Translations under genes and position numbers: made by a program | UHGV virus genome: UHGV-1354231 | DNA length: 39,909 nt | Strand: one strand, 5' to 3' | From: a virus | In this document: positions 1 through 39,909 of the stretch, piece after piece | How the letters are laid out: every line of letters begins with the position of its first letter | Numbering within the stretch: position 1 is the stretch's first letter | Notes under the pieces: generated by a model | The model's database searches: none | Seen by the model: the letters and a program-made list of their open reading frames with translations, nothing else | What the model was told of the DNA's origin: nothing

Positions 1-145
1 AGAGACGGGCTGGTGGTCTGAATGCGGATCTGAAAACGTTTAAACCGGTATTTCGTGTCACAGATGAATATTCCCGTGCCGCGCTGGACAGTTTTTTATC
101 CCGTCATGCCGGGATTCGTGCTTTTTTTGTGGCGTCCGCCAAAAC
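1..145 (+). repeat. Direct repeat: partial copy of the minor tail protein M gene, near-identical to 11845-11988 (one extra T in the T-run at 122-128)
   Basis: Base-by-base comparison of window start with 11845-11988; identity ends after gccaaaac (145/146 vs 11988/11989). Confidence 0.9.
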
Positions 146-2299: not shown

Positions 2300-2446
2300 A
2301 ACAGCTTATTACTGATATGACCGGGCTGATCGGTTTCGGTTTGCTCACTGCTGGCGTTTATCTGTATGCAGGTCTGCCAGCGTCTCTGATGCTGTCGGGC
2401 TGTTTGTTGCTGCTTTATGCACTGGTGGTGTCCATGAGGAGAAAAC

Positions 2447-4265: not shown

Positions 4266-4279
4266 GGATACTACTGACG

Positions 4280-5497: not shown

Positions 5498-5518
5498 CCA
5501 CTCGTTGTTCAGTTACAG

Positions 5519-5541
5519 ACCGCGCCGACGCGGTTTTTTTA
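5519..5541 (+). terminator. Rho-independent terminator after the major capsid gene
   Basis: ACCGCG-ccga-CGCGGT stem-loop followed by a 7-T run; a second GC hairpin (5543-5562) abuts the next SD. Confidence 0.6.
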
Positions 5542-5573
5542 TGCCCGCACAGTGTTGCGGGCAGGAGTTTCTG

Positions 5574-5891
5574 ATGGCAGCAATAGTGGAAAAACTCAGG
5601 GCGCAGTGCCGTATTGATACAGATGATGCAACTGATGATGAGTTACTGATGCTGTATTTCCGGGCTGCCTGCCGCAAGGCAGAAAATTTTATCAACCGTA
5701 AGCTTTATGAGGAGACGGTGCCGGAAGGTGATCCTGAAGGGGTGCTTATAGCTGATGATGTTTTGCTGGCGCTCATGTTGCTGGTCGGGCACTGGTACGA
5801 AAACCGGGAAAATTCCTCAGATGTCAGCAAGGCACCAGTCCCGTTTGGTTTTTCTTCTCTGCTGGAGCCTTATCGTTTTATTCCTTTGTAG
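5574..5891 (+). CDS. Head-tail connector protein (gp6-like); start trimmed from ORF 5394 to the ATG at 5574
   Basis: In-frame ATG at 5574 with GCAGGAG SD after the terminator; small acidic protein in the expected position. Confidence 0.65.
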   Translation: MAAIVEKLRAQCRIDTDDATDDELLMLYFRAACRKAENFINRKLYEETVPEGDPEGVLIADDVLLALMLLVGHWYENRENSSDVSKAPVPFGFSSLLEPYRFIPL

Positions 5892-5899
5892 GAGGAGAC

Positions 5900-6238
5900 A
5901 TGCAGGCGGGCAGATTACGTGATCGCGTAATTATTCTGAATGTCACCACCGCCCGCTCTCCGTCAGGGCATCCGGTGGAGACGGTGACGGAGGGAGCTAC
6001 CGTATGGGCAGAAGTTAAGGGTATCAGCGGGAGGGAGATAATCTCAGGCGGAGCAGAAACCGCTCAGGCTACGGTCAGAGTCTGGATGAGATTCCGGCGC
6101 GATGTGACAGCGACTTCACGTCTGAAAGTGCTGACCGGTGCATTTAAAGGGGCCATTCTGGGTATAGAAGGTCCACCAATACCGGATGCACGCGCTACCC
6201 GGCTTGAAATACTCTGCAGCCTGAAGGGGAATGTGTGA
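5900..6238 (+). CDS. Head closure / head-tail adaptor protein
   Basis: 112-aa ORF; synteny in HK97-like head modules. Confidence 0.6.
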   Translation: MQAGRLRDRVIILNVTTARSPSGHPVETVTEGATVWAEVKGISGREIISGGAETAQATVRVWMRFRRDVTATSRLKVLTGAFKGAILGIEGPPIPDARATRLEILCSLKGNV

Positions 6239-6684
6239 TGGATTTCAGTCTTGATTTTTCCGGCCTGGCGGATATTGCACGGGATCTGGAGACGCTCAGC
6301 AGGGCAGAAAACAATAAGGTTCTGCGCGATGCCACCCGTGCCGGTGCTGAAGTTATGCGGGATGCAGTTGTTGAACGTGCGCCGGAGCGAACCGGGAAAC
6401 TGAAGAAAAATGTGGTTGTTCTCACTCAGCGTTCAAAGCGTCGGGGGGAAATTATCTCGGGTGTCCACATTCGCGGACGGAACCTGCGAACCGGAAACAG
6501 TGATAACAGCATGAAAGCCAGCGATCCCCGAAATGCATTTTACTGGCGCTTTGTGGAGCTGGGAACGATAAACATGCCCGCGCATCCATTCATTCGCCCG
6601 GCTTTCGATACGACAGAGGAACTGGCAGCACGGATTGCCATACAGCGAATGAATCAGGCTATTGATGAGGTCTTAAGTAAATGA
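6235..6684 (+). CDS. HK97 gp10-family tail component
   Basis: 149-aa ORF overlapping its neighbours by 4 nt; synteny. Confidence 0.6.
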   Translation: MMDFSLDFSGLADIARDLETLSRAENNKVLRDATRAGAEVMRDAVVERAPERTGKLKKNVVVLTQRSKRRGEIISGVHIRGRNLRTGNSDNSMKASDPRNAFYWRFVELGTINMPAHPFIRPAFDTTEELAARIAIQRMNQAIDEVLSK

Positions 6685-7025
6685 GAGAGGCCACACTGTA
6701 TTCCCTGTTGTCTCAGCTGGCCGGAGGACAGGTTTATCCTTATGTGGTCCCACTGACGGAGGGAAAGCCTGCGGTATCTCCGCCGTGGCTGGTGTTTTCT
6801 GTGGTGTCTGACACGGCATCTGATGTGCTTGATGGGCAGGCTGAATCCAGAATTACCGTGCAGATCGATGTCTGGGCGACAGTACCTGATGACGCAGATA
6901 ATATTCGTGAGCAGGCGCTTGATGCGGTAAGAAAACTGGCACCCTCCGTTATTTCTAAAACGCAGGGTTATGATCCTGACTCCCGTCTGAGCAGAGCCAC
7001 GCTTGAATTTCAGGTAATAGCCTGA
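6681..7025 (+). CDS. Tail completion / neck protein (DUF3168-like)
   Basis: 114-aa ORF immediately upstream of the major tail gene; translationally coupled. Confidence 0.5.
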   Translation: MREATLYSLLSQLAGGQVYPYVVPLTEGKPAVSPPWLVFSVVSDTASDVLDGQAESRITVQIDVWATVPDDADNIREQALDAVRKLAPSVISKTQGYDPDSRLSRATLEFQVIA

Positions 7026-7045
7026 GGTCATTAATGATTTTACCC

Positions 7046-7070
7046 ACCCGCCGCTGGCGGGTTTTTTTAT
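7046..7070 (+). terminator. Rho-independent terminator upstream of the major tail gene
   Basis: ACCCGCC-gct-GGCGGGT hairpin followed by a 7-T run. Confidence 0.6.
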
Positions 7071-7085
7071 TTTCAGGAGACGAGT

Positions 7086-7790
7086 ATGTCCTCTAATTTT
7101 GAGCGTTCGCAACTGACGAAAATTATGATTTCGTCTGCACCGGTAACAGCAGAAACCCTGGATTCTGCCAGCTATCTTGGCCTGAGCTGTACAATCAAAG
7201 AGGTGCAGTTTACCGCAGGACAAAAGCAGGATATTGATGTCACCACGCTGTGTTCTGTTGAGCAGGAAAATATTAACGGTCTTGGTGCCGCGTCAGAGAT
7301 TTCCATGTCAGGCAACTTTTATCTGAATGCTGCCCAGAACGCGTTGCGCAGTGCCTATGACAATGACACCACGTATGGCTTTAAAGTTATTTTTCCGTCA
7401 GGCAACGGATTTACCTTTATGGCAGAGGTGCGTCAGCATACCTGGTCTGCAGGAACCAATGGTGTTGTGGCTGCAACGTTTTCCTTGCGCCTGAAAGGTA
7501 AACCTGTGCTGACGACAGAGCCGCTGAAAGTGAAGGCCGATTTAAAAAGCACGCTGCGGGTTGCTTCCGGAGCGAAACTTGAAATGGCGGTTGAGGCTGC
7601 GGGTGGTGTGCCGCCTTATTCTTATGTCTGGAAGAAAGGTGGTTCTCCTGTTTCCGGACAGACGGCGGCAACGTTCAGTAAGGCATCGGCAGTATCCGGT
7701 GATGCGGGTGCATATACCTGCGAGATTTCTGATTCAGCAAGCCCGGTTAACAAAGTGACCTCCACTTCCTGCACTGTAACCGTCAGTTAA
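7086..7790 (+). CDS. Major tail protein with C-terminal Ig-like domain
   Basis: 234-aa ORF with GGAGA SD; Ig-like C-terminal third as in lambda gpV-type proteins. Confidence 0.8.
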   Translation: MSSNFERSQLTKIMISSAPVTAETLDSASYLGLSCTIKEVQFTAGQKQDIDVTTLCSVEQENINGLGAASEISMSGNFYLNAAQNALRSAYDNDTTYGFKVIFPSGNGFTFMAEVRQHTWSAGTNGVVAATFSLRLKGKPVLTTEPLKVKADLKSTLRVASGAKLEMAVEAAGGVPPYSYVWKKGGSPVSGQTAATFSKASAVSGDAGAYTCEISDSASPVNKVTSTSCTVTVS

Positions 7791-8176
7791 TGAGGATGGA
7801 TGTGATGACTAAAAATATCCGTAATCTGGCACTGGCAACGATGTCGGGGTTTCGCCATAAAACCGTTGATGTGCCTGAATGGGAGGGAGCAACGGTTGTG
7901 TTACGGGAACCTTCTGCAGAAGCCTGGTTGCGCTGGCAGGAGATCGTTAAAGCAAAAGATGATGAGACACCGTTATCCGTTGCGGAGCGCGCCCGCCGAA
8001 ATCTGGAGGCAGATGTTGAACTGTTCATTGATGTTCTGTGTGATACCGGACTGCAACCCGTATTTTCAGAGGATGATCGTGAACAGGTGATTGCCGTGTA
8101 TGGCCCGGTGCATGCGCGGCTTCTTCGGCAGTCTCTGGAACTGATCAGTGATGCCGGCGAGGTTAAAAAAAAGTAG
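7790..8176 (+). CDS. Tail assembly chaperone (lambda gpG analogue)
   Basis: 128-aa ORF between major tail and tape measure genes; ends in the slippery tract. Confidence 0.8.
   Translation: MRMDVMTKNIRNLALATMSGFRHKTVDVPEWEGATVVLREPSAEAWLRWQEIVKAKDDETPLSVAERARRNLEADVELFIDVLCDTGLQPVFSEDDREQVIAVYGPVHARLLRQSLELISDAGEVKKK
8167..8173 (+). other. Programmed -1 ribosomal frameshift slippery heptamer A_AAA_AAG (G to G-T fusion)
   Basis: AAAAAAG sits at the last codons of the G-like ORF; the -1 frame is open through 8478. Confidence 0.7.
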
Positions 8177-8187
8177 CGCTTCCGGGG

Positions 8188-8478
8188 ATGCGTTTTCTGA
8201 TGATGCTGGCGCTCAGGATGGGGCGCACATTGTCAGAGTTACGCCGGGAAATGTCCGCATCAGAAATCATGATGTGGGCAGAATTTGACAGGTTCAGCCC
8301 GCTGGGGGACGAACGGGCTGATATCCGGGCTGCCCAGATTGTTTCAGCTGTTTACGGTGCGCAGGGGGTCAAAGTGCCACTGAATGATGCGCTTCTTCAG
8401 TGGGAGAAGGAGCAGACAGAAGGCGTATCAGATCCATTTGCCGGACTGGAAAACGCGCTTTTAATAGTGTCTCAGTGA
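8188..8478 (+). CDS. Tail assembly protein T-like frame, probably made only as a G-T frameshift fusion
   Basis: 96-aa ORF in the -1 frame relative to G; no independent SD; conserved G/T arrangement. Confidence 0.7.
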   Translation: MRFLMMLALRMGRTLSELRREMSASEIMMWAEFDRFSPLGDERADIRAAQIVSAVYGAQGVKVPLNDALLQWEKEQTEGVSDPFAGLENALLIVSQ

Positions 8479-8487
8479 GTCAACATA

Positions 8488-8508
8488 ACCGCTTCGGCGG
8501 TTTTTTTT
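8488..8508 (+). terminator. Hairpin + T-run after the G/T genes
   Basis: ACCGC-ttcg-GCGGT followed by an 8-T run. Confidence 0.55.
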
Positions 8509-8518
8509 CGTCCGGAGA

Positions 8519-11500
8519 ATGAGTGTGGCGACATTACGTGAACTGATTATTAAAATCTCGGCAAATTCCCGGTCATTCCAGTCAGAGATCTCCCGGGCTT
8601 CGCGTATGGGGCAGGATTACTACCGTACCATGCAGAACGGAGGCCGGCAGTCCGCTGCTGCATCCCGTGAAATGCGGCGTGCACTGGCAGAAGTGACGGA
8701 TCAGATAAATACAGCTAAATCTTCGGCACTGAATATGGCGGGGGCATTTGCCGGGGCTTTTGCTACCGGTCATCTTATTTCTTTCGCCGATGAGTGGAAT
8801 TCAGTAAATGCCCGTCTGAAGCAGGCCTCACAGTCCAGTGATGATTTTCAGGCATCACAGCGTGAATTAATGGCGATCAGCCAGAGAACGGGGACGGCGT
8901 TTTCTGATAACGCCAGCCTTTTTGCCCGTTCTGCAGCTTCCATGCGGGAGTATGGTTACAGTTCTGAGGAGGTACTGAAAGTCACCGAGGCGATCTCCAC
9001 GGGCCTGAAATTATCCGGTGCCAGTACAGCAGAAGCCAGTTCGGTGATCACGCAGTTCAGTCAGGCACTGGCGCAGGGAGTGCTGCGCGGTGAAGAGTTT
9101 AACTCGGTGAATGAGAACGGCGATCGTGTTATTCGTGCGCTGGCTGCGGGAGTGGGGGTTGCCCGTAAGGATCTGAAGGCCATGGCGGATAACGGAAAGT
9201 TGACCGCCGATAAGGTTGTTCCTGCACTGATTAGTCAGCTTGGGGCATTACGTGATGAATATGCGGCAATGCCTGATACGGTTTCATCCTCTGCAACCAA
9301 AGTTGAAAACGCCTTTATGGCCTGGGTTGGTGGTGCGAACGAGGCAAGCGGAGTGACGAAGACGCTCTCCGGTGTGCTGAATGGTATTGCAGGCAATATT
9401 GACACTGTGGCAACCGCTGCCGGTGCTCTGGTTGCCGTCGGGGTAGCCCGATATTTTGGCAATATGGCGTCTTCTGCTGGATCTGCAACTGCCGGATTAA
9501 TTACTGCAGCCAGAAACGAAGTGGCTCTTGCGGAAGCGCAGCTCCGGGGGACACAGATAGCAACAGCCAGGGCGCGTGCGGCGGTTTATCGTGCGCAACA
9601 GGCGGTTGTTGCTGCTCGCGGTACCGAAAGGCAGGCAGCCGCAGAAGCGAAACTGGCTGCTGCCCAGGCATCACTTACCCGTAATATTGCGGCCAGAACA
9701 GCAGCACAGACAACGCTGAATACTGTCACGTCAGTGGGAAGTCGTCTGTTAAGTGGAGCACTGGGACTGGTTGGTGGGGTGCCGGGGCTTGTCATGCTGG
9801 GGGCCGCGGCCTGGTACACGATGTATCAGAATCAGGAGCAGGCCAGAGAATCTGCACGCCAGTATGCCGCAAAAATCGACGAAATTCGCCAGAAAACGTC
9901 GGCAATGTCGCTTCCTGAAGCGTCAGATAATGAGGAAAAGACGCGGCAGGCACTTGATGAGCAAAACAGGTTAATTGACGAGCAGAAAAGTAAGATTAAA
10001 TCCTTACAGGAAAAAATTGCTGGCTATCAGTATGTGCTGGCAAACCCGGGCTGGACAACCGATAACGGTTTTATGATTAACCACATGACGTCGGTAAAAA
10101 CAGTCACAGAAGGGCTTGCAGAAGCAACAAATCAACTGGCAGTTGAACAGTCCCGTCTCACACAAATGCAGGGCAAAGCGCAATCCATTCAGGATGTGCT
10201 TGCCGGGCTGGAGGAGCGGCGGGTTGCGTTGATCCGTCAACAGGCGGCGGAACAAAACAAAGCGTATCAGTCCCTGTTGATCATGAATGGGCAGCATACC
10301 GAGTTTAATCGCCTTCTTGGGCTTGGTAATGAATTACTTCAGCAGCGACAGGGGCTGGTGAATGTACCGTTACGGCTACCACAGGCAACCCTGGATGATA
10401 AACAGCAGACCGCACTGAATAACAGCAAGCGCGAACTGGCTCTGTCCCGCCTTAAGGGGGAAGCGCGTGAGCGTGCCCGACTGGGCTATGCTGCGGATGA
10501 TCTCGGCTTTGTGGGAGAGGCGTATCAGACAGCCAGACAGAATTATATCAATAACTCACTGGATGCCTGGCGAAATAACCAGGCAAATAAACCCAAAGCG
10601 CATAAAAAGACCGAAGCGGAAAAAACAGAAGATATTTATAAACGGCTGATTAAACAGCAAAAAGAACAGATAGCACTGGCAGGGCAGAATACTGAACTGG
10701 CTAAGATGAAATATCAGGTCAGTCAGGGCGAATTATCAACCCTGTCAGAAGCGCAGAAAAAAACGCTTTTGCAGAATGCAGCACTCATCGACCAGAAAAA
10801 GATTCGTGAGCAGCTTGCTGCGTATGAAAGCAGCCTGGCGGACAGTAATGCCAGTACCCGGGCGTCTAACGACGCGCAGTTACTGGGATATGGTGAAGGC
10901 TCACGGATGCGTGAACGACTCCAGGAAATGTGGAGTATCCGGCATGAGTTTGAGCAGAAAAATAACGAGCTGCTGAGACAGTATCAGGCCGGAGAAATTG
11001 AAGAAGCCCTGTGGAAACAGGAGAAAGAACTGAATAAAAAATATCTGGAAGAGCGTCTCAGCGATCAGCAGGATTATTATGCAAAGGCCGATGCTTTACG
11101 TAATAACTGGAATGCAGGACTCCAGGAGGGGCTGACCAACTGGGCAGACAGTGCCACCGATTATGCTTCGCAGGCGGCAGATGCTGTCGTTTCCACTATG
11201 GACGGGCTGGTATCAAATATTTCCGATGCGCTGGCCGGAAATGTTGTGGACTGGAGAAACTGGGGGAGTTCAATTCTCCAGGAAGTTTCAAAAATTCTGA
11301 TGAATGCGGCCATTGTTAACGGACTGAAGTCACTCTCCGGTGCCGGAGGGTGGCTTGGTACGGTCGGCGGATGGATTTCGGGGGCGGTGGCAAACGCAAA
11401 AGGTGGTGTTTACACATCGGCAAATCTGAGTGCTTACAGTAACACTATTGTGGATACACCGACGTATTTTGCTTTTGCGAAAGGTGCCGGGCTGATGGGC

Positions 11501-11752
11501 GAGGCCGGGCCTGAAGCTATCATGCCACTGACACGGGCAGCGGACGGCTCTCTTGGGGTCAGAGCCATTGGCAATGTGAATAGTGGCGGGGGGGTTGTTT
11601 ATTCTCCCGTGTATCACATCAGCATTCAGAATCAAGGGAGCAATGGCGAGATAGATGCGCGCTCAGCCAGGGGACTGGTGGATCTGATCGACAGCAGGGT
11701 TGTGTCAATTATGCAGTCATCGCGTCGGGATGGAGGATTGTACAGTGCCTGA
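8519..11752 (+). CDS. Tail tape measure protein
   Basis: 1077-aa ORF, Ala/Gln-rich coiled-coil character, position after G/T. Confidence 0.9.
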   Translation: MSVATLRELIIKISANSRSFQSEISRASRMGQDYYRTMQNGGRQSAAASREMRRALAEVTDQINTAKSSALNMAGAFAGAFATGHLISFADEWNSVNARLKQASQSSDDFQASQRELMAISQRTGTAFSDNASLFARSAASMREYGYSSEEVLKVTEAISTGLKLSGASTAEASSVITQFSQALAQGVLRGEEFNSVNENGDRVIRALAAGVGVARKDLKAMADNGKLTADKVVPALISQLGALRDEYAAMPDTVSSSATKVENAFMAWVGGANEASGVTKTLSGVLNGIAGNIDTVATAAGALVAVGVARYFGNMASSAGSATAGLITAARNEVALAEAQLRGTQIATARARAAVYRAQQAVVAARGTERQAAAEAKLAAAQASLTRNIAARTAAQTTLNTVTSVGSRLLSGALGLVGGVPGLVMLGAAAWYTMYQNQEQARESARQYAAKIDEIRQKTSAMSLPEASDNEEKTRQALDEQNRLIDEQKSKIKSLQEKIAGYQYVLANPGWTTDNGFMINHMTSVKTVTEGLAEATNQLAVEQSRLTQMQGKAQSIQDVLAGLEERRVALIRQQAAEQNKAYQSLLIMNGQHTEFNRLLGLGNELLQQRQGLVNVPLRLPQATLDDKQQTALNNSKRELALSRLKGEARERARLGYAADDLGFVGEAYQTARQNYINNSLDAWRNNQANKPKAHKKTEAEKTEDIYKRLIKQQKEQIALAGQNTELAKMKYQVSQGELSTLSEAQKKTLLQNAALIDQKKIREQLAAYESSLADSNASTRASNDAQLLGYGEGSRMRERLQEMWSIRHEFEQKNNELLRQYQAGEIEEALWKQEKELNKKYLEERLSDQQDYYAKADALRNNWNAGLQEGLTNWADSATDYASQAADAVVSTMDGLVSNISDALAGNVVDWRNWGSSILQEVSKILMNAAIVNGLKSLSGAGGWLGTVGGWISGAVANAKGGVYTSANLSAYSNTIVDTPTYFAFAKGAGLMGEAGPEAIMPLTRAADGSLGVRAIGNVNSGGGVVYSPVYHISIQNQGSNGEIDARSARGLVDLIDSRVVSIMQSSRRDGGLYSA

Positions 11753-12086
11753 GCCTGAAGTTTTTAACTGGATCCCCCGTGAGGGGATGGAGACGACACG
11801 AAAGCCATCAGTTATTACGGTAAAGTTTGGTGACGGATATGAACAGAGACGGGCTGGTGGTCTGAATGCGGATCTGAAAACGTTTAAACCGGTATTTCGT
11901 GTCACAGATGAATATTCCCGTGCCGCGCTGGACAGTTTTTTATCCCGTCATGCCGGGATTCGTGCTTTTTTGTGGCGTCCGCCAAAACACAACAGGACTG
12001 TCCGGGTTGTCTGCAGGGAGTGGAGCATTTCGGATAATGCCATGTATACCGATTTTAACTGTACCTTTGAAGAGGTCACTCACTGA
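11745..12086 (+). CDS. Minor tail protein M
   Basis: GTG at 11745 with GGAGGA SD; sequence resembles lambda gpM as recalled. Confidence 0.8.
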   Translation: MPEPEVFNWIPREGMETTRKPSVITVKFGDGYEQRRAGGLNADLKTFKPVFRVTDEYSRAALDSFLSRHAGIRAFLWRPPKHNRTVRVVCREWSISDNAMYTDFNCTFEEVTH

Positions 12087-12784
12087 TGCAGGATATACAG
12101 CAGGAAACACTCAATGAGTGCACTAAAACGGAGCAATCCGCGCTGATCGTGCTCTGGGAAATTGATCTGACAGAGGTCGGCGGAGATCGTTATTTCTTCT
12201 GTAATGAGCAGAACGAAAAAGGTGAACCAGTCACCTGGCAGCGGCGGCAGTATCAGGCCTATCCCATTCAGGGAAGTGGATTTGAGATGAACGGCAAAGG
12301 AGCCAGTGCAAGGCCAACGCTTAAAGTCTCTAATCTGTACGGCATGGTCACCGGGATGGCGGAAGACCTGCAGAGTCTGGTCGGCGGAACGGTGGTCAGG
12401 CGTAAGGTTTACGCCCGTTTTCTGGATGCGGTGAACTTCGTCAACGGAAACAGTGACGCCGACCCGGAGCAGGAGGTGATCAGCCGCTGGCGCATCGAGC
12501 AGTGCAGCGAACTGAGTGCGGTCAGTGCTTCTTTTGTACTGTCCACGCCGACGGAAACGGATGGTGCGGTTTTTCCGGGGCGCATCATGCTGGCCAACAC
12601 CTGTACCTGGACCTATCGCGGTGATGAGTGCGGTTATAGCGGTCCGGCTGTCGCGGATGAATATGACCAGCCGACGTCCGATATCACGAAAGATAAATGC
12701 AGCAAATGCCTGAGTGGCTGTAAGTTTCGCAATAACGTCGGCAACTTTGGCGGCTACCTTTCCATCAACAAACTTTCGCAGTAA
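12086..12784 (+). CDS. L: Minor tail protein L
   Basis: 232-aa ORF, same length and position as lambda gpL; Cys-rich C-terminus. Confidence 0.85.
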   Translation: MQDIQQETLNECTKTEQSALIVLWEIDLTEVGGDRYFFCNEQNEKGEPVTWQRRQYQAYPIQGSGFEMNGKGASARPTLKVSNLYGMVTGMAEDLQSLVGGTVVRRKVYARFLDAVNFVNGNSDADPEQEVISRWRIEQCSELSAVSASFVLSTPTETDGAVFPGRIMLANTCTWTYRGDECGYSGPAVADEYDQPTSDITKDKCSKCLSGCKFRNNVGNFGGYLSINKLSQ

Positions 12785-25554: not shown

Positions 25555-26121
25555 TATCGCGCCCTCAACAATGAGTTTTGTGATGCGGTGCCTGGTGCCT
25601 CCAGGTGACGTTAACCAGTTAACAATTAACGCCGGATACAGAGAATCCACCCATAACACTGTTTTTGGTTTTAACTGTTCCGCGTGCGCTTAGCCGCATT
25701 CACCGCATCACAAAATTCACTTTAAAAAGGGCGGCAGAGCAGTCACGGAGTAAAACTGATACCGCCAAACGTCACCAGAAAATTGATAACAGAGGGCGTT
25801 GCAGCGGGGTTGTCACTTAAGCGTATGGTCAACCTGACAACCCGGTGTCCTCAACGGGGAAGGAATAACCCCGCCATACTTACCGCCGCGCCATTTCGCG
25901 GAGTGCCACAACTGGAAGCGCACGGTCGACGAAAATTTAACGACAGGCTATCTATGAACCAGCTACCTCGCCGTGCGCTTTCGCGTTATGGTCTGACTTT
26001 TCATGGAAATATCCTTTCAGTAAACTGTCAGTGCCGGATGCTCACCCGTGTCCGGCGCACGCACTCCACCTCACCCGTGGAGAACTCCTTAATTACCAAC
26101 CTTAGCTTCGTTGGTTAGCTA

Positions 26122-30369: not shown

Positions 30370-30872
30370 GCATCAGAACCTACGCAGTGAATTGCAATGA
30401 CGCATGGCTAAACACCGAAGGTGATGACATCTCCGGCTCATACGTTAAGTACAAAGACCATCAGGAAGTGGTTGCCGCTCTTGAGGCCAAGTGCGCGGCG
30501 CTGGCAGCGGAGAATGCGGGAATAAAGTCTGCAATTCCAGAATCACGGGATATTGAAGATGACAATGACAATATGGATGACGTATCTCTCGCGGAAGACT
30601 TCGGGTTCAATCATGCAATAGAACGGATGAGGAGACAGATACCTGAAACACCAACCACTGATGCTTTCCTGGCTGAAGTCCGGGCGCAGGGGGTGGATGC
30701 TGCTATAGAAGCTGCAAAAAATCTGGTGGCCCAAGAATATGAGTATAAGGATTTCAAAGCGGCGCAGAGTGATTGCTGTATGTACCCTGGTTCAGACCTG
30801 GTAGGGAAGGTTGAAATGACTGAGTGGTTAGTTGACTTTGCTGCCCAGCTTCGCAAAGGAGGCAACCAGTGA
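30366..30872 (+). CDS. Ea22-like protein body (168 aa from ATG 30366)
   Basis: Coiled-coil Ala-rich region and DAFLAEVRAQGVD-type segment typical of Ea22-like proteins as recalled. Confidence 0.5.
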   Translation: MSIRTYAVNCNDAWLNTEGDDISGSYVKYKDHQEVVAALEAKCAALAAENAGIKSAIPESRDIEDDNDNMDDVSLAEDFGFNHAIERMRRQIPETPTTDAFLAEVRAQGVDAAIEAAKNLVAQEYEYKDFKAAQSDCCMYPGSDLVGKVEMTEWLVDFAAQLRKGGNQ

Positions 30873-32128
30873 GCGAAATTAATTACCAGGCACTGCGTGA
30901 GGTGGCGGAACGTGCAATTCCAGCAATGGAACGCCTGTTAATGTTGCCAGCTGATGATGACTTGTTAAGTGAACAGGAACTTAAAGATTACGGTGTGGAT
31001 ATTGATGCGCTCAACGCCTTCAAATTTCTGACCGGACCAGAAACCGTGCTGGCACTGCTGGATGAACGGGAAAGAAACCTGCAATACATCAAAAGCCGCG
31101 ATCAGGAGAACGAGGATATTGCGCTAACGGTAGGGAAGCTGAGAGTTGAGCTTGAGGAAGTAAAACAACACGCTGAAGAATTATCCGAAACCAAGGCTGT
31201 TCGTAACCAATGGCGGCCAGATATTTGCCCAATAACCGGACGTGCATTTTTCATGTGGATTGAGCATCCAACATTGGGGAATGTGCCGACATATGGTGGC
31301 CCATTAGATAGTTACACCATTCCAACAAAGGACGGTGACGGTGAGTTTTCATGTGAGCGTTACGATCATGATTTTGGCGGTTGGGTAGAAAGCGAATGTC
31401 TTGGGTTATATCTGATTGATGATAGAGAACAATGCAGGGTCTACGAACTGGAGGAACGCGTTAAGGAACTGGATGCTCGGGAAATATCGCTCCCGGAACG
31501 TAGCAGCATGCTTCATCGAACAGATTTTCACGATGATTACCAAACGGTAATGGCATACAAAGTTTCTGAAGTCATCGCTGCAATCCGCGCCGCCATGCTT
31601 CAGTCCGGAAACTTTCGGGAAAACAAGAATTCGTCAACCAATAATTTTCGGGAAATCGCGGAAACGTCAACCAACTATCCGGCAATTCCTAGTGAGGTGT
31701 TGTCCGCAATCCTGAAGGTTGCCAGGATTCGTGCCGATTTCGATGATTTTGACGGTGACAGGCGAGGTATCGGTGATTGTCTGGATGAGGCTGAGCAAGA
31801 GCTTATCGTTACCATTAACAAATATGCCAGTCAGTTGGCAGCAGAACCTATAGCGCCTAATGACGTTCGAGAGCAGACAGCCATTCCACAAGTTCCGGCA
31901 ACTCCGGATGGTTGGATAAGCTGTAGTGAGCGAATGCCTGAGAACATTCCCGGAAGTTGTAAAGAGTATCTGGTGTTTGATGGGCTTAATAATAAAGTTC
32001 ATCACGATTACTGGGTTGTCCCTGATGGAGACAGTGCGCCAGTTGCGTCGTTCTGGAATCATTACGGGGCACATGTAACCCACTGGATGCCGCTACCAGA
32101 ACCGCCGCAGGAGGTTAACCGTGGCTAA
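30869..32128 (+). CDS. Ea22-like protein with DUF551-type C-terminus
   Basis: N-terminus MSEINYQALREVAE; C-terminal HWMPLPEPP motif. Confidence 0.65.
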   Translation: MSEINYQALREVAERAIPAMERLLMLPADDDLLSEQELKDYGVDIDALNAFKFLTGPETVLALLDERERNLQYIKSRDQENEDIALTVGKLRVELEEVKQHAEELSETKAVRNQWRPDICPITGRAFFMWIEHPTLGNVPTYGGPLDSYTIPTKDGDGEFSCERYDHDFGGWVESECLGLYLIDDREQCRVYELEERVKELDAREISLPERSSMLHRTDFHDDYQTVMAYKVSEVIAAIRAAMLQSGNFRENKNSSTNNFREIAETSTNYPAIPSEVLSAILKVARIRADFDDFDGDRRGIGDCLDEAEQELIVTINKYASQLAAEPIAPNDVREQTAIPQVPATPDGWISCSERMPENIPGSCKEYLVFDGLNNKVHHDYWVVPDGDSAPVASFWNHYGAHVTHWMPLPEPPQEVNRG

Positions 32129-32402
32129 CCTGCAACTTGCCGTTAAAGGTGAATACTTCGATGCCATGATTCGAGGAGAGAAAACGGAAGAGTATCGCCT
32201 GTGTAATGACTACTGGAAAAAGCGCCTCGTTAACCGTAAGTATGACCGCCTGATTATCACAAAGGGATATCCGAAGCGCGACGACTTCAGTCGAAGAATT
32301 GACGTCCCGTATGAAGGGTATGAAATCAAGACAATCACACATCCGCACTTCGGCGATAAACCGGTAAAGGTGTACGCGATAAAGGTGAATATTGATGGCT
32401 AA
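32121..32402 (+). CDS. ASCH / DUF3850-like small protein
   Basis: 93-aa ORF; N-terminal GEYFDAMIRGEKTEEYRLCND pattern resembles ASCH-like PUA fold proteins as recalled. Confidence 0.45.
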   Translation: MANLQLAVKGEYFDAMIRGEKTEEYRLCNDYWKKRLVNRKYDRLIITKGYPKRDDFSRRIDVPYEGYEIKTITHPHFGDKPVKVYAIKVNIDG

Positions 32403-32733
32403 ATCAGCAGCAGAGCGCAAAGCCGCTCAGAGAGCCAGACAAGCTGAATCCGGTGTACGTAAGCTGGAGATTGTGCTTGATGCTCAGGAAATTGAAATGC
32501 TGGAGCGGAACTGCGCCGCCCGGCGCCCTGGTCGAGATCCCTATGAAATGGCCGAGTACATCGCGCTGCTGATCCGCCAGGATGATGCCCGGGTGCGCGG
32601 GCGTATAAAATCGATCAGCAGAAAACGTTGCGGTAAGTGCGGCGAGAGAGTTCCAGTTAATTCATGCCCGTGTAATGGTGACTCGCAATGCTGGGTGACT
32701 AAAGGCTGGCATGAAACGAAATTAATAGTGTGA
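32392..32733 (+). CDS. Hypothetical basic protein with C-terminal zinc-ribbon-like Cys cluster (candidate late regulator)
   Basis: 113-aa ORF immediately upstream of a terminator and the second terminase genes. Confidence 0.4.
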   Translation: MMAKSAAERKAAQRARQAESGVRKLEIVLDAQEIEMLERNCAARRPGRDPYEMAEYIALLIRQDDARVRGRIKSISRKRCGKCGERVPVNSCPCNGDSQCWVTKGWHETKLIV

Positions 32734-32741
32734 CATGTCAC
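32730..32741. repeat. Perfect 12-bp palindrome GTGACATGTCAC (copy 1)
   Basis: Exact palindrome overlapping the stop codon of the 32392-32733 gene; identical copy at 34996-35007. Confidence 0.85.
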
Positions 32742-32782
32742 GAGTAGATTATGCATGATGAATTTGATGGGTTTTGAATACT

Positions 32783-32808
32783 GCCGCCAACTATGGCGGC
32801 TTTATTTT
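32783..32808 (+). terminator. Rho-independent terminator upstream of the second small terminase
   Basis: GCCGCC-aactat-GGCGGC followed by TTTATTTT. Confidence 0.65.
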
Positions 32809-32815
32809 GCATGGT

Positions 32816-32844
32816 ACTATTACCACAACGGTAACTATTACCAC
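32816..32844 (+). repeat. Direct repeat ACTATTACCAC x2 (18-bp period) upstream of the second small terminase
   Basis: Copies at 32816-32826 and 32834-32844. Confidence 0.7.
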
Positions 32845-32851
32845 GGTGGTT

Positions 32852-33292
32852 ATGATGCCTGCTGAACCTAAAACCTATAAACGCAAATCAACGCAATTTA
32901 AGCCACTAACAGCAATGCAGGAGGCTTATTGCCAGTCATACATCAAAACGCCTGAAAACCAGACTCAGGCAGCGATTAACGCAGGATTCTCCCCAAATAC
33001 AGCGGCAGTTAAAGCCAGTGTCATGATGCGCGATGAACGCATTCAAAAACGGATTGCCGAGTTGATGGAGGAGCGCAACAAACGAATGCGCGTCAGTGCT
33101 GATTACGTTCTCATGCGCCTGGTGGAGATCGACCAGATGGACGTGATCGACATCCTCAACGACGATGGGAGCCTTAAACCAATCCGTGAGTGGCCGAAAA
33201 TCTGGCGCACTACGCTTAGTGGCTTTGATCTGTCATCGACCATCATGAACATGAACGAGGATTCGATAGAGACAATCCTACAAAAAAATTAA
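32852..33292 (+). CDS. Terminase small subunit of the second packaging module; probably truncated by a frameshift in an A7 tract
   Basis: HTH-like segment typical of small terminases; start taken at ATGATG 32852 after the terminator rather than ORF start 32774. Confidence 0.6.
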
Positions 33293-33445
33293 ATGGCCTG
33301 ACAAGGTGAAGAACCTTGAGCTGATTGGTAAGCATGTTGATGTCAACGCGTTCAAAGAACGTCTGGATGTTAATGTGAATGTGACAATTGCTGATCGCAT
33401 AGCAGCAGCCAGGAAGCGACTCAAAGAACGTCAGGATGGTAATCA

Positions 33446-34921
33446 GTGACAGATACAGCGTTATCTCCTGAAGAGCAGTTGATCGAGGATATTGCAGGGT
33501 TCACTCACGATCCGCTTGGCTATGCCCTCTATGCGTTCCCGTGGGGGGAAGAGGGGACTGAACTGGCACATGCTACCGGCCCACGTCAGTGGCAGGCTGA
33601 TGCGTTCCGAGAGATACGTGATCACCTGCAGAATCCAGAGACGCGCTATCAGCCGCTTATGCTGGCACGTGCTTCGGGTCACGGTATTGGTAAATCCGCA
33701 TTCATCTCAATGCTGATCAACTGGGGCATGTCCACTTGCGAGGATTGTAAGGTCGTGGTGACCGCCAACACCGACAACCAGCTACGAACGAAGACCTGGC
33801 CGGAAATTATCAAGTGGTCGAACCTTGCTATCACGAAAGACTGGTTTACCTGTACCGCTACCGCGATGTACAGCAATGACCCAGGGCACGACAAGCGATG
33901 GCGGGCTGACGCAATACCCTGGTCTGAGCACAACACTGAGGCATTCGCCGGACTACACAACGAGCGCAAACGCATCATCGTGGTATTCGATGAAGCGTCG
34001 AACATTGCCGATCTGGTGTGGGAGGTAGCAGAGGGTGCGCTGACGGACGAAGACACCGAAATCATCTGGGTGGCGTTCGGGAACCCGACGCGTAACACCG
34101 GGCGTTTCCGTGAATGTTTCCGCAAGTACAAACACCGCTGGAAGTGTGCGCAGATTGACAGCCGGACGGTGGAAGGCACTAACAAACAGCAGTTGCAGAA
34201 ATGGGTTGATGACTACGGGGAAGACAGCGACTTCGTTAAAATCCGTGTGCGCGGCATATTCCCTGATGCATCTGAATTGCAGTTTATCCCTACCGGTCTT
34301 ACTGACGAGGCAATGAAACGGGTGGTAACCGCTGCGCAGGTTGCACATGCTCCGGTGATAATCGGTGTTGACCCGGCATATTCAGGCGTTGATGACGCGG
34401 TGATATACCTGCGGCAGGGGCTACACAGTAAGGTGCTGTGGACTGGCAACAAGACTACCGACGATCTGATTATGGCGAAGCGTATCGCTGATTTTGAAGA
34501 CCTGTATCAGGCTGACGCAGTGTTCATCGACTTTGGTTACGGTACCGGTCTGAAGTCAATCGGTGACGGTTGGGGGCGCACATGGCAACTTGTTCCGTTC
34601 GGTGGCGCGTCTACTGACCCGCAGATGCTCAACAAGCGTGGGGAGATGTTCAACTCATGCAAGACATGGCTGAGGCTGGGCGGGATGCTTGATGACCAGG
34701 AAACAGCGGACGACCTGTCGGCGGCAGAGTACAAAGTTCGAGTGGACGGTAAAATCGTTATCGAACCGAAGGAAGATATCAAGGAGCGGCTTGGGCGTTC
34801 GCCGGGTAAAGGCGATGCGCTATTGCTGACGTTTGCTTTCCCTGTGTCGAAGCGTCTGCGAATTCCAGGTCAGCAGAACCAGCAAGGCAAGGCCATTACA
34901 GATTACGATCCCTATGCTTAA
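33446..34921 (+). CDS. Terminase large subunit (second packaging module)
   Basis: 491 aa; Walker A-like GHGIGKS, Walker B-like VVFDEAS, C-terminal RNaseH-like nuclease region. Confidence 0.85.
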
Positions 34922-34971
34922 TCCGCTGGTGGGGATAATGTCGTTGATATCCTCTGGTGAGGATAAAACAA

Positions 34972-34998
34972 AGCCAGCTCATAGGCTGGCTGTTTGTG
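34972..34998. terminator. Hairpin between convergent genes (possible bidirectional terminator)
   Basis: GCCAGC-tcatag-GCTGGC flanked by T-rich sequence on the + strand and A-rich upstream; followed by the palindrome. Confidence 0.5.
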
Positions 34999-35007
34999 AC
35001 ATGTCAC
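34996..35007. repeat. Perfect 12-bp palindrome GTGACATGTCAC (copy 2)
   Basis: Identical to copy 1; position fixed using ORF 34957..35148 as coordinate anchor. Confidence 0.85.
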
Positions 35008-35011
35008 GGTG

Positions 35012-35367
35012 TTATTGCTCGCTTAACTTCTGCTTCAGCAAGTAACCTTCAAGCATCCAGATTTTGTTTACAGCATTCTGCCTGGCAATCTTCCGACCAA
35101 TTTCTGCATCAAAGTTTTCCGGGCTTGCACATGCGCTCTCTCCGGTGACGGTGAAGCCATTCTTCAGCACCAGTACGCAGAAAGTAAGGAGGTCTGTAGA
35201 TTTATGCGCTGTCCACGTATCGCCAACGCCCATATTGGCAGCACGAATGCCGTCATAAGCAGTAAAGAAATGCTCTTCAAGAATGATGCTTTCGATATAT
35301 TGAGGCGTAACTCGCGGAGCGGTTTTGCCTTTCTCAACGATTCTTTTTCGATTTGCTGGTCGTTCAT
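35012..35367 (-). pseudogene. Unknown moron gene with a good start at 35367 (frame A, 67 aa) running into a longer open frame ending at 35012; apparently frame-disrupted
   Basis: GGTGAG SD before ATG 35367; second frame open for ~115 codons but its first ATG (35233) has no SD. Confidence 0.35.
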
Positions 35368-35566
35368 AATCTCACCTTAAAAAAAATGCCCGTCGAACCG
35401 GGCGAACTGGAAGCAATGAGTTATGCCTTCCGTGGCTGTACGGGTTTACAGCATGAAGTCATCGCAATGGCGTCCTGCTGTAAAAAGGGCGGTGATAGTC
35501 CTTCAAGGGAAACTGTCACCGCCAAGCACCTGGAACTTCTGGCATCACGGTCCTTAGGCGTGATTC

Positions 35567-35644
35567 TGGCGTGGCATGCAGGATTCGAACCTGACAACCA
35601 ACCGCTTAGAAGGCGGTTGCTCTGTCCAACTGAGCTAATGCCAC
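35567..35644 (-). tRNA. tRNA-Arg (anticodon UCU), phage-borne; T-stem reads with a one-base bulge
   Basis: Hand-folded cloverleaf: acceptor GTGGCAT/ATGCCAC, anticodon arm ACCGC-CTTCTAA-GCGGT, T-loop TTCGAAT, 3' GCCA; resembles argU as recalled. Confidence 0.7.
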
Positions 35645-36072
35645 AACGCTGAGAGCACTTAGCCTGTTAAGGCGCCTACACTTTGTCGCGGCTCCATAAA
35701 TGCTCTCATCGTTGTACCCTCGTCTCTTCCGAGGCGTCACACCGAATCGCCGGGATGGTGAATCCCCGTGCGCGGAATAAAACCGCTCGACTTGCACATT
35801 CCGGCTACCTGGTTCGTTTGCCCGAGCAAGGGAGGGTACCCCTTAAACGTATCCAGACCGCTATCGGCGCATGTGCCATACGCCGTACTGCTCAAAATAA
35901 AAGCTCACTCCACCTGTTCAATTTAACGACAAGCCAGTCAGGTTAATAACCGGAATGAACTCTTTGCCTACCTGAAAGGTAATAACTCGTGCGTTAAATG
36001 TCAATTATCTACGATAAATAAATCATATGTGGTTAAATTGGTAATAATTTAATTGCGTACGGAGTCATTGAT

Positions 36073-36279
36073 ATGTGCATGGGTAGCTCACCATCAGTGC
36101 CTGCAACACCAGAAGTTCAGGCAGCACCACAGGAGCAGGATGCCGCCGTTGTTGATGCCCGCGACGAAGAAACACGTCGCCGTCGCGCTGCTGCTGGTCG
36201 TAGTTCTACGCTGCTTACCGGTTCTCAGGGCGACACATCAACCGCTAATACCAGCGGTAAAACGCTACTTGGTCAGTAA
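36073..36279 (+). CDS. Hypothetical 68-aa protein upstream of the portal
   Basis: ORF with GGAG-like SD; Ala/Thr/Gln-rich low-complexity sequence. Confidence 0.3.
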   Translation: MCMGSSPSVPATPEVQAAPQEQDAAVVDARDEETRRRRAAAGRSSTLLTGSQGDTSTANTSGKTLLGQ

Positions 36280-36293
36280 CCGGAGTCATTGAA

Positions 36294-37973
36294 ATGGCGG
36301 AAACAACTAAAGAGCGATTGAACAAACAGTTCGCACAACTTGAAAGCGAGCGTCAGTCGTTCGAGCCGCACTGGCGCGAGTTGAGTGATTACATCAACCC
36401 GCGTGGTTCCCGCTTTCTGACTTCTGAGGTCAACCGTAACGATCGACGCAATACACGCATTATTGATTCGACCGGGACTATGGCGGCGCGCACTCTCGCC
36501 AGCGGCATGATGTCAGGCATCACAAGCCCCGCGCGTCCGTGGTTTCGCCTGGCTACGCCAGATCCTGAAATGATGGATTATGGCCCTGTTAAGTTGTGGC
36601 TTGAGGCCGTGCAGAACCGCATGAACGATATGTTCAATAAGTCGAATCTCTATCAGTCGCTGCCGCAGTTATATGGAAGCCTCGGCACATACAGCACCGG
36701 TGCAATGGCGGTACTGGAGGATGATGAGGACATCATTCGCACAATGCCATTCCCGATAGGCAGTTACTACCTAGCTAACTCACCTCGTGGCAGTGTGGAC
36801 ACCTGTTTTCGCAAGTTCTCTATGACTGTTCGTCAGCTTGTTCAGGAGTTCGGGCTAAATAACGTCAGCGAATCCGTAAAAAGCATGTGGGAAAGCGGCA
36901 CCTACGAGAAGTGGATTGAAGTGATGCATTCGGTTTACCCGAACATTGACCGCGATACATCGAAGCTGGATAGCAAGAACAAGCCATTCAAATCGGTTTA
37001 TTACGAGGTTGGTGGCGATAACGACAAGTTGTTGCGTGAGTCCGGATTCGATGAGTTTCCAATTATGGCTCCGCGCTGGGAAGTTAACGGCGAAGATGTT
37101 TATGGATCATCATGCCCGGGTATGCTGGCGCTTGGACCTGTTAAGGCATTGCAGCTTCTCCAGAAGCGCAAGTCGCAGTTGATTGATAAAGCCACCAATC
37201 CGCCGATGATTGCTCCGACTTCCCTCAAGAATCAGCGTGCCTCCCTTCTTCCTGGCGACATCACGTATATCGATCAGATTACTGGTCAGGATAGTTTCAG
37301 GCCTGCTTATCTGGTTAACCCCAGTACAGCAGATTTGGTGGCAGACATTCAGGACACTCGTCAAATCATTAACAGCGCCTACTTTGTCGATCTGTTCATG
37401 ATGTTGCAGAACATCAATACCCGCTCGATGCCTGTTGAAGCGGTGATCGAAATGAAAGAAGAAAAACTTCTGATGTTGGGGCCGGTTCTGGAGCGTCTGA
37501 ACGACGAATGTCTTAATCCTCTCATTGACCGCGCTTTCTCGATGATGGTGCGTAAAAACATGCTGCCGCCACCACCTGACGCGATGGAAGGTATGCCCCT
37601 GAAGGTCGAATACATTTCCGTCATGGCTCAGGCGCAGAAGTCTATCGGCCTGTCCAGTCTGGCATCCACGGTCAACTTCATTGGTCAACTTGCGCAAGCG
37701 AAACCAGAAGCTCTCGACAAACTCAACGTTGATCAGGCGATCGATGCATTCGCTGATATGTCCGGAGTGTCTCCAACCGTCATTGTTCCGCAGGAACAGG
37801 TTGAGCAGGCTCGCCAGCAACGGGCACAGCAACAACAGCAGCAACAAATGATGGCGATGGGGATGGCGGCGGCACAGGGTGCCAAGACGCTAAGCGAAGC
37901 TAAAACTTCGGATCCGAGTGTTTTGTCAGCTATGGCGAATGCATTTAGTGGTCAGGGTGGGCAATCACAATGA
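36294..37973 (+). CDS. Portal / head-tail connector protein (podovirus T7-type)
   Basis: 559 aa; Gln-rich C-terminus QQQQQQQMMAMGMAAAQGA resembles the T7 gp8 C-terminus as recalled; followed by scaffold and capsid genes. Confidence 0.75.
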   Translation: MAETTKERLNKQFAQLESERQSFEPHWRELSDYINPRGSRFLTSEVNRNDRRNTRIIDSTGTMAARTLASGMMSGITSPARPWFRLATPDPEMMDYGPVKLWLEAVQNRMNDMFNKSNLYQSLPQLYGSLGTYSTGAMAVLEDDEDIIRTMPFPIGSYYLANSPRGSVDTCFRKFSMTVRQLVQEFGLNNVSESVKSMWESGTYEKWIEVMHSVYPNIDRDTSKLDSKNKPFKSVYYEVGGDNDKLLRESGFDEFPIMAPRWEVNGEDVYGSSCPGMLALGPVKALQLLQKRKSQLIDKATNPPMIAPTSLKNQRASLLPGDITYIDQITGQDSFRPAYLVNPSTADLVADIQDTRQIINSAYFVDLFMMLQNINTRSMPVEAVIEMKEEKLLMLGPVLERLNDECLNPLIDRAFSMMVRKNMLPPPPDAMEGMPLKVEYISVMAQAQKSIGLSSLASTVNFIGQLAQAKPEALDKLNVDQAIDAFADMSGVSPTVIVPQEQVEQARQQRAQQQQQQQMMAMGMAAAQGAKTLSEAKTSDPSVLSAMANAFSGQGGQSQ

Positions 37974-38266
37974 CAGATTACGAAGACGATCAACTGAAAG
38001 AAGAAAACGCCCGTAAGCAACGTGACATGGCACAGCGTGAAATTGATGACATTCGCTTTGTCATGAGCAGTGAACAGGGGCGTCGCGTTGTCTGGTCGGT
38101 GCTGGAGAAAGGCCGGGTGTTTTCCGCTATCTCTCCGATGGATGCTATGGCAATGGCATTTAATGAGGGGCAACGCAATCTGGCGCTGGAACTGTTTCAG
38201 CGCGTTATGGCGCATTGCCCTGAACAGTATTTGAAGATGGCCAAAGAGGCCAGTGAACAGGAGTGA
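37970..38266 (+). CDS. Hypothetical 98-aa head-module protein
   Basis: ATGA overlap with the portal stop. Confidence 0.45.
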   Translation: MTDYEDDQLKEENARKQRDMAQREIDDIRFVMSSEQGRRVVWSVLEKGRVFSAISPMDAMAMAFNEGQRNLALELFQRVMAHCPEQYLKMAKEASEQE

Positions 38267-38964
38267 TCATGAATTTATTTGAGCGTTTGCTGTATCGCCG
38301 TCTTTGCAATGAGCAACCAGTTGATGGCGGAGCAGCTCCGGCTGCGTCAGAACCGTCAGCGCCTGCAGGTGATAACCCTGCTCCAGTTGGTGATCCATCA
38401 CAACTGGAAGGTGATAAGCCACAACCTGTTGCTGATGGCGATAAACCTGCTGATGACAAAAAGCCTGAAAACGATAAGCAGGATGAAAAAAAGGACGGCG
38501 ATAAACCAGAGGGGGCGCCTGAGAAGTACGAGTTTCAGGCTGCCGAAGGCGTAGAGCTGGATACAGAAGCGTTGAAGGAATTCGAGCCGGTGGCGCGAGA
38601 ACTTAACCTGACCAACGAGCAAGCGCAAAAGCTGGTTGATGCTTATCCGAAGATTCTGGCAGGTGTTCAGCAGCGCCAGGCAGAAGCCTGGCAGAAAACA
38701 ACCGAGCAGTGGGCTGCGGATGTAAAAGCTGACAAAGAAATCGGTGGCGACAAGTTGATTTCTAACCTTAGCGCCGCACAGCGTGCGCTTGACCAGTTCG
38801 GGACACCTGAACTCAAAGAATATCTGAACACCACCGGACTGGGTAATCACCCTGATCTGGTCAAAACGTTCGTGAAAATCGGAAAGGCGATGTCTGAAGA
38901 TGGCATGGTCACCGGTGGTAATGAAGGCCAGCGTAGTGCGGCCGAAGTGCTCTATGGCAAATAA
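38263..38964 (+). CDS. Putative scaffolding protein (acidic, Pro/Asp/Lys-rich N-terminal half); likely start at ATG 38269
   Basis: Position between portal and major capsid; AGGAG SD upstream. Confidence 0.5.
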   Translation: MIMNLFERLLYRRLCNEQPVDGGAAPAASEPSAPAGDNPAPVGDPSQLEGDKPQPVADGDKPADDKKPENDKQDEKKDGDKPEGAPEKYEFQAAEGVELDTEALKEFEPVARELNLTNEQAQKLVDAYPKILAGVQQRQAEAWQKTTEQWAADVKADKEIGGDKLISNLSAAQRALDQFGTPELKEYLNTTGLGNHPDLVKTFVKIGKAMSEDGMVTGGNEGQRSAAEVLYGK

Positions 38965-38978
38965 GAGAGGAAATGACA

Positions 38979-39909
38979 ATGGCTGTTAAAGGCTTAACTG
39001 CGCTAACGCTGGCTGACTGGGGTAAGCGCGTCGATCCAAACGGGAAAGTCGATAAGATTATCGAGCTTCTCGGTCAAACTAACCCGATCCTTCAGGATAT
39101 GCCTTTTGTCGAAGGGAACCTTCCTACCGGACACCGAACCACCATTCGTTCTGGTTTACCTTCAGCTACCTGGCGTTTGCTGAACTATGGCGTACAGCCA
39201 AGCAAATCAACCACAGTGCAGGTCACCGATTACGTTGGCATGCTGGAAACCTATGCTGAAGTCGATAAGTCACTGGCTGATCTGAACGGCAATACCGCCG
39301 AATTCCGCCTGTCTGAAGACCGAGCATTTATTGAAGCGATGAATCAGCAGATGGCGCAGACGCTGTTTTATGGTGATTCCAGCGTTAACCCTCAGCAGTT
39401 TATGGGACTGTCCTCCCGCTATTCCAGCCTGTCTGCGGGTAATGCTCAGAACATCATTGATGCTGGTGGCACGGGTACAGATAACACCTCAATCTGGTTA
39501 GTGGTGTGGGGCGAAAACACCGTGCATGGCATCTTCCCGAAAGGGCAGAAGGCTGGCATCCAAATGGAAGATAAAGGCCAGGTGACACTGGAAGATGCTA
39601 ATGGCGGCAAGTACGAAGGCTATCGCACCCATTACAAATGGGATAACGGACTTGCTCTACGTGACTGGCGTTATGTTGTTCGCATTGCAAACATCGATGT
39701 CAGCAATCTTTCAGAACCTTCCTCTGCCGCAAATATTGCGAAGTTGATGGTTAAAGCACTGCATCGCATTCCAAATCGTGGCATGGGTCGCCCGGTGTTC
39801 TACATGAACCGCACTGTAGGCCAGGCTCTTGATCTGCAATCTCTGGAGAAAACATCTCTGGCGATCAGCGTAAAAGAGACAGAAGGCGAGTGGTGGACTT
39901 CATTCCGTG
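38979..39909 (+). CDS. Major capsid protein, 3' end cut off by the window edge
   Basis: ATG at 38979 with GAGAGG SD; frame open to window end (~310 codons); position after scaffold. Confidence 0.65.
   Translation, partial: MAVKGLTALTLADWGKRVDPNGKVDKIIELLGQTNPILQDMPFVEGNLPTGHRTTIRSGLPSATWRLLNYGVQPSKSTTVQVTDYVGMLETYAEVDKSLADLNGNTAEFRLSEDRAFIEAMNQQMAQTLFYGDSSVNPQQFMGLSSRYSSLSAGNAQNIIDAGGTGTDNTSIWLVVWGENTVHGIFPKGQKAGIQMEDKGQVTLEDANGGKYEGYRTHYKWDNGLALRDWRYVVRIANIDVSNLSEPSSAANIAKLMVKALHRIPNRGMGRPVFYMNRTVGQALDLQSLEKTSLAISVKETEGEWWTSFR

Follow-up and report, generated by a model that had tools for sequence, protein, structure and literature searches.

A premature stop in a prophage small terminase gene is most likely the result of a local consensus error

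The small terminase gene (terS) of the virus genome UHGV-1354231 is split by one extra base, an A at position 33280, which most likely is a local error of the sequencing or assembly consensus. The stretch of DNA that was analysed, called here the window, is 39,909 nucleotides long and contains two tandem prophages, prophage A from 1 to ~21.2 kb and prophage B from ~21,257, the latter carrying the split gene. The split is most probably an artefact; if it is real, the gene is an ordinary pseudogene. The gene itself is an ordinary small terminase of the phiV10/epsilon15 type (Uetakevirus-like) that belongs to the Terminase_2 family.

The truncated small terminase and its extension

The features of the terS-terL region, given with the evidence on which each of them is based, are the following.

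32852 to 33292, plus strand: truncated small terminase ORF, 146 aa from ATG (PF03592 Terminase_2, 83 bits)
33280, plus strand: extra base A that shifts terS out of frame (alignments to phages and to E. coli prophages)
33282 to 33288, plus strand: A7 run of normal length, read as Lys-Lys by relatives, CTC AAA AAA ATT (relatives' alignments)
33288 to 33449, plus strand: C-terminal 53 codons of terS and the stop, now in the +1 frame (begins with ATT 33288)
33446 to 34921, plus strand: intact large terminase gene (terL), 491 aa, GTG start (PHROG 2 and PHROG 5902)

Direct reading of the zero frame gives C 33281, the A7 run at 33282-33288, T 33289 and a TAA stop at 33290-33292, and the bases recorded at 33277-33290 are CCTACAAAAAAATT. 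An earlier sequence-only reading had placed the end of the gene at this TAA, right after 33281-33288, and its coordinates were borne out. In the +1 frame, the gene continues up to a TGA at 33447-33449 that overlaps the GTG of terL at 33446. The same reading had described a protein-like continuation of 52 residues whose TGA overlaps the terL start; the continuation and the GTGA overlap at 33446-33449 were both found, but the residues counted are 53. The terS gene is thus located directly upstream of terL with an overlap of the kind expected for translational coupling, and this arrangement is conserved in phiV10. The -1 frame at the A7 site was also read directly and is a dead end after seven codons, which rules out a -1 frameshift on A-AAA-AAU and makes +1 the required shift.

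Fusion of the two frames lengthens the profile matches. The Pfam Terminase_2 match covers profile positions 1-104 in the zero frame and 1-138 of 141 on the fused frames, the truncated ORF scoring 83.2 bits and the fused frames 103.7 bits, both above the cut-off of 26.1. In the same way, the match of TerS to PHROG 51 goes from 74-184 to 74-244 and from 144 to 197 bits once the frames are fused. The window does not hold a full-length Terminase_2 domain in one frame, as profile positions 105-138 are reached only via the +1 frame, and the relatives encode the entire domain in a single frame. The extension therefore lies within the TerS fold.

The displaced segment (33288-33449) encodes the conserved stalk motif K-x-LEL-x-GKH together with the C-terminal tail. 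In the known architecture of TerS, the oligomerisation core is followed by a stalk and then by a flexible C-terminal moiety (PMC9611059). The structural reference for the Terminase_2 family, G1P of Bacillus phage SF6 (PDB 3ZQP/3ZQQ), is a distant relative (E = 7e-7) in which residues 20-99 of the 3zqp chain align to residues 14-93 of the window TerS, that is, to the N-terminal HTH and the oligomerisation region. The stalk of SF6 G1P (residues 122-158 in 3zqp, AKDRIKALELLGKA) corresponds to residues 144-180 of the window TerS in an alignment that is weak when taken alone (7 bits), and the motif K-x-LEL-x-GK is shared by the extension and the SF6 segment. Because of this weak alignment, the assignment of the extension to the stalk relies mainly on the lengthening of the Pfam and PHROG profile matches. 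The extension is the true C-terminus of TerS and no chance open frame, since TerS of PCN033, PAS61 and phiV10 ends in exactly these 53 residues. The fused window protein is 99% identical to TerS of E. coli PCN033, PAS61 and phiV10.

At the other end of the gene, translation probably starts at ATG 32852 or 32855, which gives a protein of 197-198 aa. A TTG at 32774 is the start of the mechanically called ORF and also of the PGAP calls in relatives (224 aa). A terminator-like hairpin at 32783-32800, followed by a T-rich tail, is found inside the extension that this TTG adds (32774-32851), and the ATG start is favoured for this reason. It is also the start used in the annotation of Tyrion and on Logan and ENA contigs, where the called gene has 197 aa.

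The large terminase encoded at 33446-34921 has no Pfam-A match at E <= 0.01 and was recognised only via PHROG 2 and PHROG 5902. Its gene is often named 'hypothetical protein' by PGAP.

Position of the extra base

The position of the lesion could be read directly from the alignments. Every BLAST alignment, whether to phiV10, PAS61, Tyrion, an E15-like phage or E. coli prophages, put a single gap at 33280. The extra A follows T 33279 and precedes C 33281, which places it two bases upstream of the A7 run (CCT-C becomes CCTAC), and the codons that read ATC CTC AAA AAA ATT AAA TGG in relatives read ATC CTA CAA AAA AAT TAA in the window. It is the sole difference in terS from three relatives that have no substitution (L022, L033 and L037). 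The view that terS is truncated by a one-base frameshift is confirmed by these alignments, in which a single extra base separates the window from in-frame relatives. On the contrary, the A7 run, to which the indel had been attributed as one option in the sequence-only reading, is not the lesion, since an indel inside the run would cost two extra mismatches and the in-frame relatives have the same C+A7.

The run is conserved. A gapped-pattern scan found C+A7 in 119 of 120 IMG/VR contigs, the remaining one showing an in-frame C-for-A substitution, and A7 was in frame in all the relatives fetched from phage and complete-genome collections. A premature stop beside a homopolymer can mislead, as A7 is innocent here and the lesion is located two bases upstream. 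In the IMG/VR contig L116 (IMGVR_UViG_2547132281_000008, 2976-3022), a natural in-frame CTC CAA AAA ATT was observed that encodes ILQK where the others have ILKK. The K-to-Q change expected of a window protein rescued by slippage is thus found in nature.

Relatives and rarity of the variant

The terS-terL module belongs to Uetakevirus-type (epsilon15/phiV10-like) phages. The window shares with these relatives the gene order DUF551, ASCH, hypothetical gene, terS, terL, Gp49, tRNA-Arg and portal, and the C+A7 run is common to the window and to phiV10 and other phages and prophages of this type (PAS61, Tyrion, E15-like). The terS of the window is ~98% identical at the DNA level to that of phiV10 (PhiV10p01, YP_512255.2), in which the same 4-nt overlap between terS and terL is present (CDS 41-715 and 712-2187). 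Nevertheless, terS is in frame in phiV10, PAS61, Tyrion and the E15-like phage, whereas the window gene is split by the extra A.

A 747-nt query around the site had matches in 510 records of E. coli and 19 of phages; the full-length matches listed were 746 nt long. In most of the records fetched, namely phiV10, PAS61, Tyrion and four E. coli prophages, terS runs uninterrupted for 675 nt (in Tyrion, for 594 nt from ATG) and overlaps terL by 4 nt. In an E15-like Salmonella phage, terS is likewise continuous (675 nt), and the annotated start of terL lies further downstream. Alignment to homologues had been named in the sequence-only reading as a way to check the gene, and the full-length small terminases of relatives do include the extension, in one continuous gene in about 500 E. 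coli prophages and in phiV10, PAS61, Tyrion and the E15-like phage. Homologues that end at the same position, with non-coding DNA downstream, are not what is seen, as the terS of relatives continues through the extension.

The insertion was observed in this record only. In a search of 5,426 complete E. coli genomes, none of the 459 matching records reached 99% identity to a 72-mer across the site with the insertion. In parallel, an exact 38-mer with the insertion had no match in IMG/VR, GTDB representative genomes and JGI metagenomes, and the truncated TerS protein, taken with four alternative starts, had no exact match in a collection of 15 billion proteins. The exact TerL protein of the window was present on 19 other contigs, which among the matches listed carried an intact terS (197 or 224 aa) and an intact Gp49-family gene (118 or 123 aa).

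A cluster of private single-base indels

The extra A of terS has neighbours of the same kind, and the features downstream of terL that are affected are the following.

35012 to 35367, minus strand: Gp49-family gene, frameshifted near its 5' end by a private one-base deletion (alignment to relatives)
35379, plus strand: private insertion, intergenic A run, A7 to A8 (alignment to relatives)
35567 to 35644, minus strand: tRNA-Arg(UCU) with a private extra base, 35594, at the start of the T-stem (alignment, Rfam)
35677, plus strand: private T insertion, intergenic, outside homopolymers (alignment to relatives)

Compared with L037 (Logan ERR975247) and L033 (GCA_001292545.1), the window from 30849 to 39909 (9.06 kb) shows no substitution and five single-base indels, which are +A 33280, -T after 35340, +A 35379, +A 35594 and +T 35677 and span 2.4 kb. 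All five were found to be private to the window when it was compared with 13 aligned relatives that have an identical terL. Insertions account for four of them, three lie outside homopolymers, and the sites hit are terS, the Gp49-family gene, the tRNA-Arg and two intergenic positions. In the Gp49-family gene, the deletion after 35340 (plus-strand position) changes GAAATC to GAATC on the coding strand; the longest ORF that remains is 73 aa, and relatives encode 118 aa (PF13876). For the tRNA-Arg(UCU), the Rfam tRNA score is 60.7 bits in the window versus 73.2 bits in the relative L037.

The window as a whole is not indel-prone, as judged from two comparisons. Its positions 141-12299 (12.2 kb), in the other prophage, match contig L162 with one mismatch and no gaps, and no uncompensated coding indel was found against CP048934 over ~31 kb.

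Origin of the split gene

A consensus error that is local to this part of the record is the probable origin of the extra A, since a set of five indels in 9 kb without any substitution is unlike lineage divergence. The lesion is private, the closest relatives are otherwise identical and the indels that accompany it come without substitutions, from which we infer that the cause was most likely technical rather than mutational. The single extra A shifts the frame in this record only, and zero-frame translation stops at TAA 33290 and leaves the last 53 codons, with the stalk motif, the C-terminal tail and the GTGA overlap, in the +1 frame. The insertion may come, for example, from part of a long-read or hybrid assembly that was left unpolished. 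The real phage would in that case have an intact terS and an ordinary translation, and the sequence of the source strain at the site would read CCTCAAAAAAATT. Long-read errors are known to pseudogenise genes (PMC12007338), and the indel errors of long-read or hybrid assemblies resemble what is seen in the window in that isolated single-base indels break conserved genes, cluster locally and are not accompanied by substitutions (PMC12007338). A further single-base indel of the window, one extra T at position 122, separates 1-145 from its repeat at 11845-11988 and thus falls in DNA shown to be repeated, which also speaks for an error. However, the insertion at 33280 lies outside a homopolymer, the commonest site of platform errors, which speaks against an error. 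In addition, an error would have to be strictly local, because most of the window appears to be of high quality, and a search of the window for another copy of the 32.7-35.8 kb segment, which could account for failed polishing, found none. With a consensus error, the split terS, the stand-alone 47-aa ORF, the broken Gp49-family gene and the odd tRNA-Arg would all go back to one local sequence-quality problem.

It is also possible, though rather unlikely, that the extra A is real, in which case a private mutation has recently inactivated the gene and the resident prophage is at the onset of decay. TerS would then, with the same modest likelihood, be cut after residue 146 of 198 and lack both its stalk motif and its C-terminal tail; terL would no longer be translationally coupled and prophage B would be unable to package its DNA. 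The recorded sequence does contain the frameshift, the Gp49-family gene of this prophage is frameshifted as well, and the neighbouring prophage has a 5'-truncated P27-type terS, so that the locus has a history of damage. Moreover, the C-terminal parts of TerS are needed, as deletion of the C-terminal tail of P22 TerS abolishes both DNA binding and the association with TerL (PMC9611059). Nevertheless, five indels with zero substitutions over 9 kb relative to the nearest relatives are very unlikely to arise by real mutation, and a mismatch-repair mutator would instead give transitions and homopolymer slips. One of the indels is in a tRNA stem and two are intergenic, with no sign of decay targeted to genes, and none of the five is carried by any other assembly searched. 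If the bases are real, they make ordinary prophage pseudogenes and should not be reported as recoding.

Recoding would yield a full-length TerS by a +1 ribosomal frameshift at AAA-AAU-UAA or by RNA polymerase slippage on A7, and it is highly improbable in spite of the slippery run that stands directly before the stop. One A dropped from the mRNA would restore the frame (...ILQKIKWPDK...) at the cost of the K-to-Q change only, and ILQK is the natural in-frame allele of contig L116. Low-level transcriptional slippage on A/T runs is reportedly established in E. coli. Useful transcriptional slippage typically needs runs of 9 or more A/T and the A7 run is shorter, nothing indicates a selection for slippage, and no long run kept out of frame across relatives was found. 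The split seen in the window is conserved in no relative, so that the first requirement of programmed recoding fails. Neither a slippery motif in the correct frame nor a stimulator is seen; in particular, direct reading of 33255-33292 revealed no Shine-Dalgarno-like stimulator upstream of the site (no GGAGG-like sequence in 30 nt), and a downstream structure has no bearing on a +1 shift. The well-known frameshifts of prfB (+1, CUU-UGA), dnaX (-1, A-AAA-AAG) and the phage tail chaperone G/GT share with the window a shift-prone run beside a stop and a protein-like continuation in another frame, but their out-of-frame layout and their stimulators are conserved, whereas the layout of the window is shared by no relative and no stimulator is seen in it. 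The programmed frameshift that the sequence-only reading had put forward as one option is thus set aside, the insertion being a private one with four other private indels nearby in the same record.

In another possible arrangement, TerS would be made in two pieces, the 146-aa N-terminal fragment and a 47-aa peptide re-initiated at GTG 33306, which is extremely unlikely. An exact stand-alone ORF of 47 aa (GTG 33306 to TGA 33449 in the window) was called on 105 contigs, and in all ten of those fetched (L011-L020) it is explained by A6 instead of A7. In the A6 contigs, for instance L015 (E. coli DEC10B, AIGQ01000062.1) and L016 (UGFM01000001.1), the stop of the N-terminal part is in a GTGA overlap with the GTG of the 47-aa ORF. 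The window stop is on the contrary 14 nt upstream of GTG 33306 and does not overlap it, and nothing suggests that a split stalk can assemble.

The A6 forms come from draft genomes, Logan assemblies or metagenomes. Among 460 complete-genome records, none matched a 70-mer with A6 exactly, and A6 was also absent from the 120 IMG/VR contigs. The change arose repeatedly, as A6 occurs in diverse terS-terL haplotypes that are interleaved with A7 ones, and at least one of the ten A6 contigs fetched (L014) is visibly error-ridden, with a fragmented terL. The A6 forms were judged to be sporadic homopolymer slips or platform errors and no maintained state. It is very unlikely that the A7 of the terS family is a genuine slippage hotspot that serves as a contingency switch or as a leaky rescue for the packaging competence of prophages. 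If it were, slippage on the A7 of the window would restore a near-native TerS (ILQK).

Prophage context in the window

Prophage A has a P27-type terS and terL, an HK97-like head and lambda-like tails. Prophage B starts with a partial tRNA-Ser att copy at ~21,257 and its integrase is intact (341 aa). Its Uetakevirus-type late region, to which the split terS belongs, begins at ~30.65 kb and runs off the end of the window.

In the lambdoid early region of prophage B, a DicF antisense RNA is located at 25729-25780 on the minus strand (Rfam RF00039, 76.7 bits). A close relative, CP048934, has dicB, ydfC and ydfB in the region that matches the DicF region of prophage B. A mosaic junction is found at ~30651-30849. 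The early region on its upstream side resembles, at 99% identity, a lambdoid prophage carried by E. coli 190693, and the DNA on its downstream side is identical to that of Uetakevirus-type prophages that have different early regions (RecT, YqaJ, lambda P).

The small terminase that comes first in the window is without its native 5' end; its ORF has 137 aa, compared with 160 aa in relatives. Window positions 1-145 repeat part of the minor-tail (gpM-like) gene of prophage A (11845-11988), with no mismatch and one extra T in a T run (position 122). This repeat is fused directly to approximately codon 28 of the P27-type small terminase, and the junction at ~141 could be a rearrangement between the tandem prophages or a mis-join.
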